Below, piece by piece: positions 21,654 through 27,349 of a stretch of 64,000 nucleotides of DNA. A program made the position numbers and the translations under genes. This stretch comes from Escherichia coli (GTDB lineage Bacteria > Pseudomonadota > Gammaproteobacteria > Enterobacterales > Enterobacteriaceae): NCBI RefSeq assembly GCF_003018235.1, contig NZ_CP027439.1. One strand, 5' to 3'. The first letter of the stretch is position 1. Each line of letters starts with the position of its first letter. The notes beneath the pieces are model-generated. The model searched no databases. It was not told the origin of the DNA and worked only from the letters and a program-made list of their open reading frames with translations.

Positions 21654-21941
21654 TCACCTCATTCGTTCGCTGGCAAGATTATAAACATCACTACGTTCAC
21701 GTTTCCCTACAGCAACAACAGCGATAACTAATTGATCATCAATCACCTGATAAACCAGGCGGAAGCCAGACGCACGAAGTTTAATTTTGTAGCAATCCTT
21801 TATCCCACGCAGTTTTGCTGATGGGATATGTGGATTTTCACTGCACTTCTTTAGCTTTTTAGCAAACTGCTGCTGAATTGCCTTATCCAGTTTTTGCCAT
21901 TCTTTCAGTGCATCTTCCCTGAATCTGACTGTGTAAGTCAT
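21654..21941 (-). CDS. relE: RelE/ParE-family type II toxin (StbE-like)
   Basis: 95-aa protein with a RelE fold pattern. Overlaps the upstream antitoxin gene by 4 bp. Confidence 0.8.
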   Translation of the reverse strand: MTYTVRFREDALKEWQKLDKAIQQQFAKKLKKCSENPHIPSAKLRGIKDCYKIKLRASGFRLVYQVIDDQLVIAVVAVGKRERSDVYNLASERMR

Positions 21942-22189
21942 AGGTAGCTATCCAGATCTACATCGTGCAGCTTCTGGTTGCTGCGTTCGGCGACCAGATT
22001 AACCAGTTCCTGATCGTCTAGGGCATCGAGCATCTTTTCATACAGTTCTGCGGGGACACAGTAAAAGGCGGGCTGGTTACGGTTCAGAATCGCGACTGGG
22101 TAACCATCACCGGCACTGACTGTCGCCATCGGGTTTTTTTTCAGTTCGCTGACACTGGCGCTAGTGTCACTCAGAATAATGTGGGGCAT
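21938..22189 (-). CDS. Phd/YefM (StbD-like) type II antitoxin
   Basis: 83-aa acidic protein immediately upstream of the relE-like gene in the classic overlapping arrangement. Confidence 0.75.
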   Translation of the reverse strand: MPHIILSDTSASVSELKKNPMATVSAGDGYPVAILNRNQPAFYCVPAELYEKMLDALDDQELVNLVAERSNQKLHDVDLDSYL

Positions 22190-22415
22190 AGGGCACCTTT
22201 AGAGACTATTTAACAGGTCTTTATAGTGTTCTAAAAAAGACCTCTTAACAAGTCTTTTTGTCATTTTACTCAATGTGCCGTAAAGCCCCGCCCTTCAGGG
22301 CGAGGAGGATGTCAAATAATAGGACCCCGAAAGGATTAGTAATGTGGCGTCTTTGCTACACAGGTGCTTTTGTAATATGTTGTATAGCGTACTCACTACA
22401 CAGGAGATGTGTATG

Positions 22416-22952
22416 GCATTGTCACAGATCAGCGTTCGTATTGATGATGAACTCAAACAACGCACGGATGAAAAAATGAAACTGCTGAGAACCAACCCCA
22501 CGCAGGCCATTACGTTGCTCTATCAGTATATTGCTGAAAATGGGAAACTTCCCTTTACTGTCAGCACCCAACTCTTCACTTCAGAGGATTACACCCAAAA
22601 ATTAATCACCACAGTCAGATCTATTTATGAATACTGGCGCGCGCTTTCTGAGACATCAGCAACAACCAGAACGAAAAGTGGAATGGCCTATTCAATGGCA
22701 ATGGCAGCACATGTTTCGAAGCTGCACAGCGATCTGATACACAACTGCGGCACCTTGAGTGGTGAAGAAGTTGCCTCATTAATGATTGTTATGGAGGACA
22801 TTCTTTCTACGCCGCCATCTTTTTATCGCGGAGAAGCGCCCGATCAGGTGTTTCAGGATAAATTAAACGCTGCTGACCAAACTATTCTGATGATTGAAAA
22901 ATGTCATGGTATGAATGTTCAACGCGGGGAAAATTTTTACGCTCTCAGATGA
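22416..22952 (+). CDS. DinJ/RelB-like ribbon-helix-helix domain fused to a ~110-aa C-terminal domain of unknown function
   Basis: N-terminus MALSQISVRIDDELKQRTDEKMKLL resembles DinJ. No cognate YafQ/RelE gene is adjacent. SD aggag upstream. Confidence 0.6.
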   Translation, partial: ALSQISVRIDDELKQRTDEKMKLLRTNPTQAITLLYQYIAENGKLPFTVSTQLFTSEDYTQKLITTVRSIYEYWRALSETSATTRTKSGMAYSMAMAAHVSKLHSDLIHNCGTLSGEEVASLMIVMEDILSTPPSFYRGEAPDQVFQDKLNAADQTILMIEKCHGMNVQRGENFYALR

Positions 22953-23087
22953 ATGCACTGAATATGCAACAGCCCGTAAGGGTTTTTTTTGTGTACGCAG
23001 GACAGTTAATCCTAGTGTCCAGTGTGGAGCGGAAGTTACGTAACATTTGACGTAAGTATTTTTGGGATACTTATGAACTGAAATAAG

Positions 23088-23103
23088 ATTTCGCATGCGA
23101 AAT
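23088..23103. promoter_or_regulatory. Perfect palindrome ATTTCGCATGCGAAAT, copy 1 (candidate ParB site or operator)
   Basis: Perfect 16-bp palindrome, extended to 18 bp (gatttcgcatgcgaaatc). Lies 235 bp upstream of parA. Confidence 0.5.
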
Positions 23104-23306
23104 CTATTGCGTATCATTATTGATACTCTATGATTTCTCTGTATACTGTTCATATTGTCATGAACGTATGGCAACAAACGCAGTAGTAGATAGCTGCTTC
23201 TGCATCTTGGCGCAACGCCTGACTCACAGGAGTGTGTATGAAATACCGCAATGAATTCATATCATTACAGCAATACTTTTTCAATCCGCGCCGCCCCCTC
23301 TCAAAC

Positions 23307-23322
23307 ATTTCGCATGCGAAAT
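23307..23322. promoter_or_regulatory. Palindrome ATTTCGCATGCGAAAT, copy 2
   Basis: Identical 16-mer, 16 bp upstream of the parA ATG, overlapping the putative promoter/RBS region. Confidence 0.5.
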
Positions 23323-23337
23323 CTTAAGGACTGTTAC

Positions 23338-24204
23338 ATGACACTGAAAATTGGACCTATCGGAAAATTAATCGTTATATGTAGCCAGAAGGGCGGAATC
23401 GTAAAATCGCAGTCATCCAGCGAAATAGCATATGATCTTCGAGAATCAGGTTTTCGTGTGCTTGAAATTGATATGGACTGGACTACTGGTCTGACAGAGA
23501 GAGCTTTCCCCGATAGCTTACCCTATGAGATAGAGCGCGAACCTTTAAGTAACAGTTTTACACCCGGCGAAGCGAATACATATCAGCTTTTCTTCCCGGA
23601 CACTGAAGTTCGACCGATTGAGCTTCCTGGCGGGCGTTTTTTTATTGGCGCTACCAGTGAGCTTAATGAAATTAACTACCGCAACAGCGACTGTATGTTC
23701 GACTTCAGAGACCGTATTGAAGAACTGAAGAAACAGTTTGATTTTATTATTGCTGATTCAGCGCCATCATATTCAAACGTTATGATCGCCGCACATATGT
23801 CAGCTGACTATCTTCTGATCCCTACTCTGTTGGAGAAGCAGGCCCGAAATGCAGTTGGTAAACAGCTTACTTACATGCAAAAAATAAAACGGAACTATAA
23901 TCCATCGTTGCAGTTTATGGGCACTTATGTGACCCAAACACCGGTAAAAAATTATAAAAAGCCGCTTAAAGAAGGGTATTTGGGACCTATTGATACACTG
24001 AATCTGAATCTACTCATTGAGATCCTTCAGGGAAAAGGATATTCCGAAGAGTACATTCTTGCCTATATATCATTTGTACCTGCTGCTGCCAAAGAAGCGA
24101 TAGAACTTGGCCTCTCATTTGATGAATATGATCCTAAGTGTCTTCCTGCAATTCAGTATAAAGAGCTTACCCAGAAAATTATTCAGATCGCAGGAGATAA
24201 ATAA
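23338..24204 (+). CDS. parA: ParA/SopA-family partition ATPase
   Basis: Deviant Walker A motif KGGIVKS. The ORF is open from an upstream ATG at 23251; SD aagga precedes 23338. Confidence 0.75.
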   Translation: MTLKIGPIGKLIVICSQKGGIVKSQSSSEIAYDLRESGFRVLEIDMDWTTGLTERAFPDSLPYEIEREPLSNSFTPGEANTYQLFFPDTEVRPIELPGGRFFIGATSELNEINYRNSDCMFDFRDRIEELKKQFDFIIADSAPSYSNVMIAAHMSADYLLIPTLLEKQARNAVGKQLTYMQKIKRNYNPSLQFMGTYVTQTPVKNYKKPLKEGYLGPIDTLNLNLLIEILQGKGYSEEYILAYISFVPAAAKEAIELGLSFDEYDPKCLPAIQYKELTQKIIQIAGDK

Positions 24205-25235
24205 TGGCCAAGAAACCGTTTATGAAACGACTCAAGGCGCAGCAGGAAATGAAAAAAAACTCTGCTGTTGTCTCTGATATTGAACAAGTCATTGCAAATA
24301 AACAGCCAGATGAGAAGAGCCATGACGTATCTGCGCACCAGATTTTGACAGATATTTCCCGCCCGGTTCTTGAACCTGATGGACAGATAATCCGCGTCGA
24401 TATAAACCTGGTTTATGCTGAGGAACAAGTACGACCTGAAGAAGATTTCGATGAAGAGGTTATCGATGGTATGGCAGATACTTTCGAAACCATAGGGATG
24501 CTTACCCCGCCTCGTTGTTATCCCCGCGACAGACGTGGATACCAGATATGGTTAGGAGAAACACGAGTTCGTACTGCACGTAAACGTGGTGATACCCATA
24601 TTGATATTTATGTCGGTAAACCACCACGAGAAAGAAAAGAACGAATCATTGGTCAGCTCATTGAAAACCTTCAGCAATCGGGTTTAAAACCATTAGCGAC
24701 TGCAAGATCGTTCTATGAACTTAAGCATCACTTCAATATGACGGGTGAACAGATCGCAAAAACGATGGGTAAACCAACCTCATTTGTCAGTAAACATCTT
24801 CGTCTCATTGATGCTCCAGAGAATGTTACCGCCCTTCTCCGGGATAAAGTGACATCCGATATTGATTTGGCTTACACACTAATACAGGTAAATGAAAGGG
24901 CTCCTGAAGAAGCCGAGAAGCTTATTGCAGCTGCGCGGGAATCTGGTATTTCACGCGCGCAAGTTAAAGCTGTTCTTGATGAGGTTAAGAACAAAAGCAA
25001 CCGTGAGATTTCGCATGCGAAATCTAAAGCTCAGAATAAAAGGCCATCCAAGTCTCTTAATAACAATTCAGATGTAAAAAGCTGGCAGGTAGTTGTCGAG
25101 ATTGACGGTCAGCAGGGAGTAATAATGACCGACCGTGCGCCAGAGGAAGATGGCTATGTGTGGGTTAAATTAGATATTGGTGAAATATCCGTCGAGGCTT
25201 CAGAGGTTCGTGTCAAGGGAATGCGGTCTTTGTGA
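24204..25235 (+). CDS. parB: ParB/Spo0J-family partition protein
   Basis: ParB N-terminal domain pattern (…GLKPLATARSFYELK… HTH region). Start is coupled to the parA stop codon. Confidence 0.75.
   Translation: MAKKPFMKRLKAQQEMKKNSAVVSDIEQVIANKQPDEKSHDVSAHQILTDISRPVLEPDGQIIRVDINLVYAEEQVRPEEDFDEEVIDGMADTFETIGMLTPPRCYPRDRRGYQIWLGETRVRTARKRGDTHIDIYVGKPPRERKERIIGQLIENLQQSGLKPLATARSFYELKHHFNMTGEQIAKTMGKPTSFVSKHLRLIDAPENVTALLRDKVTSDIDLAYTLIQVNERAPEEAEKLIAAARESGISRAQVKAVLDEVKNKSNREISHAKSKAQNKRPSKSLNNNSDVKSWQVVVEIDGQQGVIMTDRAPEEDGYVWVKLDIGEISVEASEVRVKGMRSL
25008..25023. promoter_or_regulatory. Palindrome ATTTCGCATGCGAAAT, copy 3 (inside the parB 3' region)
   Basis: Identical 16-mer, extended to 20 bp (agatttcgcatgcgaaatct). 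Confidence 0.45.
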
Positions 25236-25672
25236 TGAAATCAACCCCATTCACTGAAATGGCCACTGCATTCCGTGGCCAAATTGTCCGTCTCTGGGCG
25301 CTTCGATATCCCGGAACTCAATCCGAAGCAGCTGCTGCATTAACAGAAGCTGCTATCAATCTTGGATACGTTACAAGAAGTAGACCTGTGCCTGGAGCAG
25401 CCTTATTATCATGGTTATCGAATCCCGCTGAAACGCCTCTGTGGGCGGCTCAGACCGCATTAACGATGATGCTCAAGATTGGCTGGAAGCCAGAGAGTAA
25501 TCAAGAATGGTGTGGGATGTCGGCACTGATATTCAGAGCTAATCGTAAACTTTCACTTGAACTGTTAGTTGCATCCTTGCCTGATAGTATAGACAGGCAA
25601 ACTGCTACAGGATGGTTTGTGGCTGCAATAGAAGAAGATGCCCACTACCGTTATAACAGGAAATTCAGATGA
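25232..25672 (+). CDS. Hypothetical protein
   Basis: 146-aa ORF translationally coupled to parB (ATGA overlap). Confidence 0.5.
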   Translation: MMKSTPFTEMATAFRGQIVRLWALRYPGTQSEAAAALTEAAINLGYVTRSRPVPGAALLSWLSNPAETPLWAAQTALTMMLKIGWKPESNQEWCGMSALIFRANRKLSLELLVASLPDSIDRQTATGWFVAAIEEDAHYRYNRKFR

Positions 25673-25992
25673 CCTTTCAGGAGCTTGATGCTTGTATTGC
25701 TGGCTCTGGTAGGCGTTCTATCGCTTCAGCGTTAATCGCTTTTATTCTCGATGCGTTTGATGATGGACAGGACGGAGTTGATCTTGATTCTTTCCAGAGC
25801 CAGATGCGCTTCGTTCGCAACAATGTAACAACCGTAGCCAACTATCTGCAGCGACAGGGGGTTCTCCATATACTGTATTACCGTGATGGTGCCGCAGAAC
25901 GTCAGTATGAGACCGTTAATAATTATGGACGATGGGCAAAACAGCACTATCGTCCTTCTCAGGCACTTATTCAGTTGCACCGCCGTAATTAA
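25669..25992 (+). CDS. Hypothetical protein
   Basis: 107-aa ORF coupled to the preceding gene. Confidence 0.5.
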   Translation: MTFQELDACIAGSGRRSIASALIAFILDAFDDGQDGVDLDSFQSQMRFVRNNVTTVANYLQRQGVLHILYYRDGAAERQYETVNNYGRWAKQHYRPSQALIQLHRRN

Positions 25993-25999
25993 AGCAAAG

Positions 26000-26015
26000 A
26001 TTTCGCATGCGAAAT
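26000..26015. promoter_or_regulatory. Palindrome ATTTCGCATGCGAAAT, copy 4 (extended 26-bp palindrome)
   Basis: caaagatttcgcatgcgaaatctttg immediately after the par-operon genes. Confidence 0.45.
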
Positions 26016-26074
26016 CTTTGCTTACCTAATGTGCCATAAAGCCCCGTCCTTCTGGACGGGGAGGATGTCAAAGG

Positions 26075-27349
26075 TCATCGTATCATTGCCACCGGGAGGT
26101 CAGTCCAGCGTGTCGTATATGCTGGTGACAACATTTCGCGCTTCATTTGCCACTCAGGAGCTATGCCTCGCCCCGCAAACCACACTTTCCCAAGTCCAGA
26201 ATGGTTAATACCGTCCACGACTTTCATCAATTGATTACTGTTGCTTCGGGGCAGAGTATCATCAAACAGATTCAACTGTGAAACTCCGGTCGGCGTAAAA
26301 TCGTTCAGCATGCAGCCTGCCCTTACATAGCGGTGGCCATTCACCCAGATCCTGTCCAGGGCTTTGACGGCAGCGGCAATGATGTCCGGTGTATCCTGCG
26401 TGGGGATGAGCAGCTTTTCACTGGCCAGATTACCGTAGTAGGGCTCATTTACGGCAAACGGCGATGTTTTCACAAATACGACAATATGCCTGCAGAACTG
26501 CCGTTCGCCGCGCAGCTTTTCCGCAGCACGCTCAGCGTACTGACAGACTGCCTGACGCAGGGCTTCATACGTTGTGATACGCTCCCCAAAAGACCTGCTG
26601 CAGACAATCTGCTGTTTCGGCGGGGGAGCTTCTTCAAGCGAAATACAGCTTTCTCCGTTGAGTTCCCGGACCGTTCTCTCCAGTACAACGTTGAAATTCT
26701 TCCGGATAAATACGGGGTTCGCGCGCGCCAGCTGCAGTGCAGTGGTGATGCCCATTGTGCTTAGTTTCCTGGATATCCTGCTGCCAACTCCCCAGATTTC
26801 TTCCACCGGCTGCAGTGAAAGCAGTTTCTCCGTTCGTTTCGGATTGTGTGATGTCAGGGCAAGCACACCACCGAATTGTGGCCATTCCTTGGACGCCCAT
26901 TGCGCGCTTTTAGCCAGCGTTTTGGTTGGCCCCATCCCGACACCTATTGTCAGCCCCGTTCCTGAGCGCACGTGTTCGCGTAGCTGCCGCCCAAAGTCCT
27001 CATAGTCGATGCAGTTGTCTATACCACGGATATCGAGAAACATCTCATCGATGCTGTACTGTTCCACACGTGGCGCCAGCTCTTCTAGGTGAGTCATCAC
27101 CCTGTTAGACATGGACGCGTACAGCTCGTAATTGCTTGAGAACACGATGATCTGCTCAGAGAATTCCGCCTTCTTCAGTTGAAACCACGGCACTCCCATT
27201 TTGATACCCAGCAACTTCGCTTCTTTTGAACGGGCGATAACGCAACCATCATTGTTACTGAGTACCACAACCGGCTTGTTTCGCAAATCAGGTCGAAATA
27301 CTTTCTCGCAGCTGGCATAAAATGAATTCACATCAGCGAGCGCAAACAT
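26075..27349 (-). CDS. umuC: Translesion DNA polymerase V catalytic subunit UmuC (Y-family)
   Basis: [22 protein letters not shown]… 424 aa. Confidence 0.95.

Follow-up and report, generated by a model that had tools for sequence, protein, structure and literature searches.

Results

The 64,000-nt window analyzed here (Escherichia coli contig NZ_CP027439.1) is part of a mosaic F-like conjugative plasmid, with cargo genes at about 1–22 kb, maintenance functions at 22–29 kb, a leading region at 29–40 kb, and F-type tra genes at 40–64 kb. This mosaic composition explains why no full-length match to the window was found in PLSDB. Within the maintenance region, a RelB-like gene is followed by a non-coding region, parA, parB, and the overlapping open reading frames (ORFs) orf146 and orf107, with umuC convergent to them. 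Four copies of the palindrome ATTTCGCATGCGAAAT are distributed over this operon (Table 1), and from comparative sequence analysis we consider it very probable that they are the specific binding sites, serving as parS centromere and operator, of the KorB-type ParB protein that the operon encodes. The sites, ParB, and ParA would together form a ParABS partition module of the kind represented by IncC/KorB of plasmid RK2 and by ParAB-053 of IncC plasmids.

Table 1. Features of the par region; positions are those of the window unless another locus is named.
Feature	Position	Strand	Description
Site 1, candidate parS/operator copy	23086–23105 (core 23088–23103)	.	20-bp perfect palindrome; −35 hexamer 14 nt downstream of its end
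IR2, second distinct inverted repeat	23106–23131 (core TATCATTATTGATA, 23112–23125)	.	Overlaps the −35 box
Ppar, predicted sigma-70 promoter	23120–23147	+	−35 TTGATA at 23120–23125, 16-nt spacer, −10 TATACT at 23142–23147
Conserved leader element	23209–23240	+	Hairpin GGCGCAACGCC at 23209–23219, Shine-Dalgarno (SD) sequence AGGAG at 23228–23232, ATG at 23238; near-invariant in 12 loci
Leader ORF, unannotated (also in RefSeq relatives)	23238–23327	+	29 amino acids, MKYRNEFISLQQYFFNPRRPLSNISHAKS
Site 2, candidate parS copy	23307–23322	.	16 bp; parA SD (AAGGA, 23326–23330) 3 nt downstream
parA	23338–24204	+	288-amino-acid ParA/MinD-type ATPase without N-terminal helix-turn-helix (HTH); Pfam AAA_31 (1.3e-21), also CbiA and MipZ
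parB	24204–25235	+	343-amino-acid KorB-type ParB: ParB_N, HTH_ParB/KorB, variable linker, KorB_C-like C-terminal domain
Site 3, candidate parS copy within parB	25006–25025 (core 25008–25023)	.	20-bp palindrome; codons 269–274 (ISHAKS), in the linker between HTH and C-terminal domains
orf146	25235–25672	+	145 amino acids from ATG; conserved, all-helical, weak XRE-HTH similarity, no clear structural relative
orf107	25669–25992	+	Conserved, 107 amino acids; predicted winged helix-turn-helix (wHTH) fold
Site 4, candidate parS copy	25992–26023 (core 26000–26015)	.	32-bp perfect palindrome; 8 nt past the orf107 stop
RES-gene insertion, locus L003	5959–7373 of L003		RES-domain gene past site 4
RES-gene insertion, locus L005	about 3900–5345 of L005		RES-domain gene past site 4

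The palindrome is confined to the par operon

An earlier reading of this DNA from its letters alone (the sequence-only reading) had described four copies of a perfect 16-bp palindrome, two 5′ of parA, one in the 3′ part of parB, and one past the last gene. An exact-match scan of the window agrees on the four copies, and their placement relative to the genes is borne out; the palindromic extents, by contrast, had been given as 18, 18, 20, and 26 bp and are 20, 16, 20, and 32 bp when recomputed. No fifth copy was found in the window with up to three mismatches allowed. By chance 0.41 copies would be expected, and four were not reached in any of 100 dinucleotide-preserving shuffles. No other repeat family of note was found between positions 22900 and 26200.

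A search for further copies, which the sequence-only reading had proposed, returned none beyond the operon either in the window or in two sister plasmids of 41.7 and 75.3 kb, both complete and each with exactly the four operon copies. We therefore reject the idea of a generic repeat. Among 2.9 million viral contigs in IMG/VR, 16 stretches contain the palindrome, which by our own estimate is about the number expected by chance. One phage contig with 28% G+C (IMGVR_UViG_3300019754_000113) holds five exact 16-mers (positions 1778, 2786, 4957, and 5144 of stretch L029 and 2695 of stretch L034), which adjoin integrase and CI/LexA-like repressor genes. No tblastn match to ParA, ParB, orf146, or orf107 was found near these sites in the fetched stretches, and this phage probably uses the palindrome independently, as an operator.

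Site sequence and layout are conserved across a plasmid family

A search of 5.8 billion proteins with ParB recovered an Enterobacterales plasmid family extending from 95% down to about 40% identity. Our comparison set comprises 21 loci (19 fetched from species-representative genomes, plus plasmid loci) in E. coli, Klebsiella, Kluyvera, Izhakiella, Mixta, Providencia, Morganella, Erwinia, Pantoea, Yersinia, and Serratia; ParB identity to the window spans 100% to 43%, and two loci, on short Yersinia contigs, are truncated inside parA or ahead of it. Every full-length locus contains 4–10 copies of the site, either exact or with up to two mismatches, confined to the outermost positions, and the 14-bp core TTTCGCATGCGAAA is invariant in all 96 sites (83 of them distinct) from the 21 loci. 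Beyond the core, A or T fills positions ±8 in about 90% of sites; only a weak preference for AG...CT is seen at ±9 and ±10, and the flanks past these are random.

The layout is conserved as well: at least one site lies 5′ of the promoter, one lies 3–4 nt before the parA SD, and one follows the last gene. The distance from the start of site 2 to the parA ATG is 30–32 nt in 18 of 19 loci, and in 15 of the 16 loci that bear orf107 a site lies about 3–12 nt from the end of the last gene, the remaining locus (L010) being alike at 13 nt. The position of site 1 is kept in the 12 loci whose upstream regions were aligned. In the Klebsiella lineage this promoter-proximal site reads AATTCGCATGCGAATT (position 3006 of L003 and 6006 of L040), with the same change in both arms so that the palindrome stays intact; it may be a weaker or tuned operator. 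The long palindromic extension of site 4 is lineage-specific, and we rejected it as a conserved feature.

The site in the parB linker is usual among relatives and absent in Yersinia and Serratia. Its translation, ISHAKS, forms an island of identity within a hypervariable, length-variable linker, and occurs twice in some Pantoea proteins. Across 18 parB genes, the 95 invariant columns that hold a degenerate amino acid use 3.0 codons on average, and a single codon is used in only seven; four of these seven are the consecutive residues S270-H271-A272-K273, spelled by the TCG CAT GCG AAA of the palindrome. This conservation at wobble positions means that ISHAKS is a by-product of a conserved DNA site and, as judged from codon usage, shows that selection acts on DNA at the linker copy.

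Some distant relatives carry more sites. The Morganella psychrotolerans contig L011 has 10 copies within 13 kb, three of them clustered within 100 bp (2497–2590) and others at positions including 3236, 7947, and 12041. Several of these copies are intergenic and lie upstream of genes unrelated to partition, as is the case for RK2 OB operators and IncC parS, and, as in those two systems, ParB may have a wider regulatory role in some family members. In some Klebsiella and Kluyvera plasmids a gene for a RES-domain protein (NAD+ phosphorylase toxin-like) is inserted past site 4 and is followed by two more palindromes. The extra copies appear, from their placement, to extend the ParB-bound domain over the added gene.

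ParA and ParB are conserved members of the partition families

ParA is the most conserved protein of the module, with 94.8–96.5% amino acid identity in relatives that are about 88% identical in DNA, and parA adjoins parB in every locus covering that position. The deviant Walker box KGGIVKS singled out by the sequence-only reading is present at residues 18–24 (window 23389–23409); it fits the ParA/MinD pattern KGGxxK[ST] but has Val for the usual Gly before Lys. The form KGG[IV]VK[ST] is family-wide, with the exception of a Serratia outlier that has KGGIGKT. An ATG inside palindrome 2 is in frame with parA in most loci; we rejected it as the start codon because no SD precedes it, and the conserved AAGGA-N7-ATG defines the start at 23338.

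The predicted domains of ParB are supported by Pfam matches to ParB_N (27.9 bits, cut-off 26.3), HTH_ParB (9.8e-10), and KorB (PF08535; 1.5e-16, 60.6 bits, cut-off 22.3), while the match to KorB_C (PF06613) is borderline at 25.0 bits against a cut-off of 25. Among NCBIfam models, TIGR00180 parB_part scores 75.6 (cut-off 58.45), and the Noc model is also matched. Compared with the sequences of PDB entries, ParB is best matched by Spo0J (3.8e-17), Noc (about 1e-13), and other chromosomal ParBs, with KorB weaker. The alignment to Spo0J (6SDK) covers boxes I–III of the CTPase fold, which read QVRPEEDF, GETRVR, and ENLQQ. Box II, GETRVR(T/S), has Thr for the first Arg and Thr or Ser for Ala of the canonical GERRxRA. 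The HTH region (GKPxxFVSKH) is nearly invariant across the family.

The module resembles the IncC and RK2 partition systems

A 2024 study defined the IncC parS, a 22-bp inverted repeat of sequence AAAC-TTTCACATGTGAAA-GTTT that is bound by the IncC ParB in electrophoretic mobility shift assays, mediates both incompatibility and ParA/ParB-dependent stabilization, and overlaps PparA, a promoter that the plasmid represses 8–11-fold (PMC10954446). For comparison we used the operon of pSN254, an IncC (IncA/C; R55/pSN254) plasmid. The ParB encoded there shares 30% identity with that of the window over the N-terminal and HTH domains (E = 9e-20), and the C-terminal barrels give a second match; the two proteins have a common layout of ParB_N, KorB/HTH, and C-terminal barrel. 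Both ParA proteins are short and lack an HTH (23% identity), and both operons continue with one or more small accessory genes. The two 14-bp cores are equal at 12 of 14 positions and differ at one symmetric position, which is G:C in TTTCGCATGCGAAA and A:T in TTTCACATGTGAAA. This likeness of sites combined with the homology of the ParB proteins is the strongest single argument for a parS reading.

The two systems are nonetheless distinct. Each has a site at its par promoter; the IncC one overlaps the −10 box and transcription start, whereas site 1 is placed 5′ of the −35 box. Without AAAC/GTTT on its sides the IncC core is not bound, while flanks in the window's family are weakly constrained (A...T plus a weak AG...CT). 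IncC plasmids have about 14 sites scattered over the backbone, compared with four here, all within the operon; an intragenic linker site and a leader ORF, both present here, are not described there. No IncC-type core was found in the compared loci, and no window-type core in a 50-kb stretch of pSN254. We also considered orf146 and orf107 as homologs of the IncC 053 protein (90 amino acids, HTH) and rejected this, as BLASTP found no similarity. With a different core and unrelated accessory genes, the module is, as far as sequence comparison can place it, outside the IncC family proper.

The OB operator of RK2 is TTTAGCSGCTAAA, with the half-site TTTAGC, to which the half-site TTTCGC of the window is similar. 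KorB of RK2/RP4 is a ParB-family protein that is both centromere binder and repressor, and its Pfam KorB and KorB_C domains are common to the window ParB. At the RK2 PkorA promoter, OB lies directly 5′ of the −35 box and is neighbored by a second operator, to which a small partner repressor binds (PMC11790492). The window resembles this arrangement in having site 1 followed by IR2, and in an operon that encodes a predicted wHTH protein. KorB is a CTPase even though its own motif, GARRYR, deviates (PMC11790492). Several differences set the systems apart: in sequence the window ParB is closer to chromosomal ParB/Noc than to KorB; OB is 13 bp with an odd center, whereas the window palindrome is 16 bp with an even center; and RK2 disperses 12 OB sites as a global regulon, while in the window and two sister plasmids all sites are within the par operon, dispersed sites being seen only in distant relatives such as the Morganella locus L011. 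In addition, KorA is encoded upstream, within incC, and its operator overlaps the −10 box, whereas IR2 overlaps the −35 box.

Chromosomal ParB/Spo0J binds the parS sequence TGTTNCACGTGAAACA and Noc the NBS sequence ATTTCCCGGGAAAT. Like the window site, these are palindromes of 14–16 bp with TTTC...GAAA arms, and the B. subtilis parS that was described first is located within spo0J, a parallel to site 3 within parB. In contrast to these chromosomal systems, the window's is on a plasmid and its ParB ends in a domain of the KorB_C type; the sites also differ in their central bases and in half-site spacing, and box II of the window ParB reads GETRVR, not GERRFRA.

A conserved promoter and leader precede parA

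Ppar is the best promoter-like match in the region, agreeing with the consensus at 10 of 12 positions, and transcription would start near 23154. In an alignment of the upstream regions of 12 loci (ParB identity 58–100%), the −35 hexamer TTGATA is invariant and the −10 hexamer (TATACT/TATAAT) is invariant at five of six positions. With site 1 just 5′ of the −35 box and site 2 within the leader of the transcript, autoregulation of the operon is probable. The sequence-only reading had suggested that the copy near the ribosome-binding site could also be the operator; that copy does lie in the leader, about 160 nt inside the predicted transcript and at the end of the leader ORF, but site 1, just 5′ of the conserved −35 box, is better placed for it.

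IR2 varies by clade. Providencia loci have it as a perfect palindrome of 26 bp, Pantoea and Erwinia carry another long palindrome (GAATCA..TGATTC core) in its place, and L011, L013, and L018, the loci without orf107, have no IR2. This variation and this co-absence make IR2 a candidate operator for a second repressor. The AlphaFold2 model of orf107 has a pLDDT of 94.7, and its top Foldseek matches are all wHTH proteins of the MarR/ArsR/TFE type (TM-scores 0.5–0.6). By analogy with KorA/OA beside KorB/OB, we hypothesize that orf107 might bind IR2 and act with ParB at Ppar. No sequence relation between orf107 and KorA was found.

The leader ORF, which has a strong SD of its own, runs through site 2, read as ISHAK, to a TAA stop overlapping the SD of parA. 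It is kept in 12 loci (ParB identity at least 58%), where AGGAG-N5-ATG, the same frame through the site, and a stop on or beside the SD are retained while the peptide varies. More distant clades lack the ORF and still keep the spacing between site 2 and the SD. This pattern of conservation suggests that the leader is translated and coupled to parA translation.

In the surroundings of the module, a toxin-antitoxin pair of the RelE/ParE-Phd type (21654–22189) lies directly upstream, as does an unusually long RelB/DinJ-like antitoxin ORF at 22344–22952 (202 amino acids from GTG; shorter in the annotation of relatives). Between site 4 and the convergent umuC, a G+C-rich hairpin at 26024–26075, AAAGCCCCGTCC-ttct-GGACGGGGAGG, is likely the real bidirectional terminator.

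The module is widespread in Klebsiella plasmids

At least 609 PLSDB plasmids carry the module, and Klebsiella accounts for 458 of these. Three E. coli plasmids, pE105-3, pPE164, and pDEC5B-4, have it at 99.8% identity, and 606 further records match at about 88%. One carrier is a 223-kb IncFIB/IncHI1B plasmid of K. pneumoniae, which in size and replicon type appears similar to the pLVPK virulence plasmids. A pKpQIL-type KPC plasmid carries the module beside its FIB replicon, where it is annotated only as sopA/parA and sopB/parB.

Discussion

The proposal, already made in the sequence-only reading, that the operon's HTH-containing ParB reads the palindromes as parS-type sites is supported here by comparison, through the conservation of the sites, the selection seen at the linker copy, and homology to the IncC system. 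From these comparisons we infer that the window ParB binds the sites, depends on CTP, spreads, serves partition, and represses its own operon. With its ParB_N and HTH domains, a ParA gene directly upstream of parB, and a repeated palindrome at the operon, the module has the traits of a type Ia-like ParABS system with HTH ParB (IncP/IncC subgroup). It would join the KorB/IncC kind of ParABS system, as a new member and not as a new kind, with a site that we did not find in the searchable literature.

A number of observations weigh against this interpretation. The departure of box II, GETRVR(T/S), from GERRxRA means that CTP binding and clamping are not assured, and the P-loop of ParA has Val where Gly is almost universal, its ATPase activity being a prediction from sequence. 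Simple DNA binding does not explain the fixed spacing of 30–32 nt between site 2 and parA. Since the site is invariant within the family, there is no covariation of protein and DNA to be seen there, only the between-family difference from IncC. Searches of the full-text literature with the 16-, 14-, and 12-mer returned only an unrelated paper on NRF1, and searches by RefSeq protein accession and plasmid names found no functional study of the locus. Finally, many Klebsiella plasmids that have the module also carry an F-type SopABC system (PMC3177203), so that partition need not depend on the par locus everywhere.

The last point bears on the alternative that survives best, namely that the sites are mainly or only transcriptional operators, with ParB a KorB-like autorepressor or silencer and segregation accomplished by something else. 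Besides SopABC in many Klebsiella carriers and the atypical P-loop of ParA, this alternative draws on site 1 lying beside the −35 box and site 2 in the leader, and on KorB and IncC ParB both repressing through their own sites. Yet ParA, the best conserved protein of the module, is always co-encoded with ParB, sites 3 and 4 do not lie at a promoter, and no other partition system is annotated in pPE164 or pDEC5B-4. Furthermore, the same sites do both jobs in RK2 and IncC, so the two roles are compatible. We consider a mainly or purely regulatory role improbable.

The palindrome could instead be bound by orf107 or orf146, both co-transcribed within the bracketed unit, the former with a confident wHTH model and the latter with weak XRE-HTH similarity. 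This we judge very unlikely, as L011, L013, and L018 lack both genes and L019 lacks orf146, and all four keep 4–10 exact sites at the usual positions, whereas no locus long enough to cover parA and parB is without them. The separate repeat IR2 tracks the presence of orf107, and the nearest characterized site, IncC parS, is bound by ParB in a system whose 053 protein is dispensable for parS-dependent stabilization. Because the sites persist without orf146 and orf107, ParA has no domain that reads DNA sequence, and the HTH of ParB is near-invariant like the site itself, ParB is the protein expected to read the sites.

A role as RNA hairpins (terminators, processing sites, stabilizers, or a translational element before parA) is suggested by the fixed distance of site 2 from the SD, by the position of site 4 at the 3′ end of the operon with a hairpin energy of −18.5 kcal/mol, by T-runs after some sites, and by a terminator-like score of site 1 on the minus strand. 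Site 1, however, is upstream of the promoter. Loop and stem are invariant, without compensatory changes, in 83 sites whose flanks are random, where covariation would be expected of a pure hairpin. At −3.3 kcal/mol (site 2) to −8.3 kcal/mol the core hairpin is weak, only site 4 folds strongly in this lineage and it has no U-tract, the leader as a whole is not unusually structured (z = −0.64), and no Rfam match exceeds the threshold. Of the RNA families considered and rejected, HgcC scored below threshold (32 versus 50 bits), probably because of the hairpins at 25909–26084 (site 4 and the G+C-rich hairpin), and nrdJ matched at chance level. An explanation by RNA structure as such thus seems to us extremely improbable, although sites 2 and 4 may have an accessory RNA role. 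That the palindromes are recombination or mobile-element boundaries of a par cassette we dismiss almost entirely: homology to the relatives of about 88% identity begins at or shortly before site 1 and stops at site 4, and some Klebsiella and Kluyvera plasmids have the extra RES-domain gene followed by two more copies, but the module has no associated recombinase, two of the four copies sit inside it at set functional places (before the SD and in the parB linker), and ends at the outermost cis sites are expected of any functional cassette.

Under the reading of the palindromes as ParB sites, ParB dimers would recognize the 14–16-bp palindrome with their HTH/KorB domain. Like other ParB-CTPases, the dimers would then probably form closed clamps and, from the four sites at which they load, spread over the operon of about 2.9 kb, and ParA would move the resulting partition complex. 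The same ParB complex would probably autoregulate the operon, perhaps assisted by a repressor at IR2. A fuller scheme, which we offer tentatively and regard as rather doubtful, would join these elements: ParB-CTP clamps, having loaded at site 1, are caught at the neighboring IR2 by orf107, shutting Ppar, while site 2 couples ParB occupancy to translation of parA. If this were true, orf107 would be a non-homologous analogue of KorA, and the one symmetric base-pair difference from IncC parS would be a natural specificity switch against cross-reaction in partition; the plasmid families bearing this module and IncC plasmids often occur in the same Klebsiella host.

The working concept of ParABS is unchanged by these results, since the underlying mechanism is well known. 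What they likely define is the centromere of a very common partition module of Klebsiella and E. coli. Its sequence would offer a handle for incompatibility-based plasmid curing and enable chromatin immunoprecipitation and imaging of carrier plasmids. It would also help to predict cross-talk in partition, as IncC plasmids and SGI1-type hijackers use a site one symmetric base pair away. With near-identical sites read by ParBs that are only 30% identical, the two families would present a clean natural case of specificity switching in ParB/KorB proteins.

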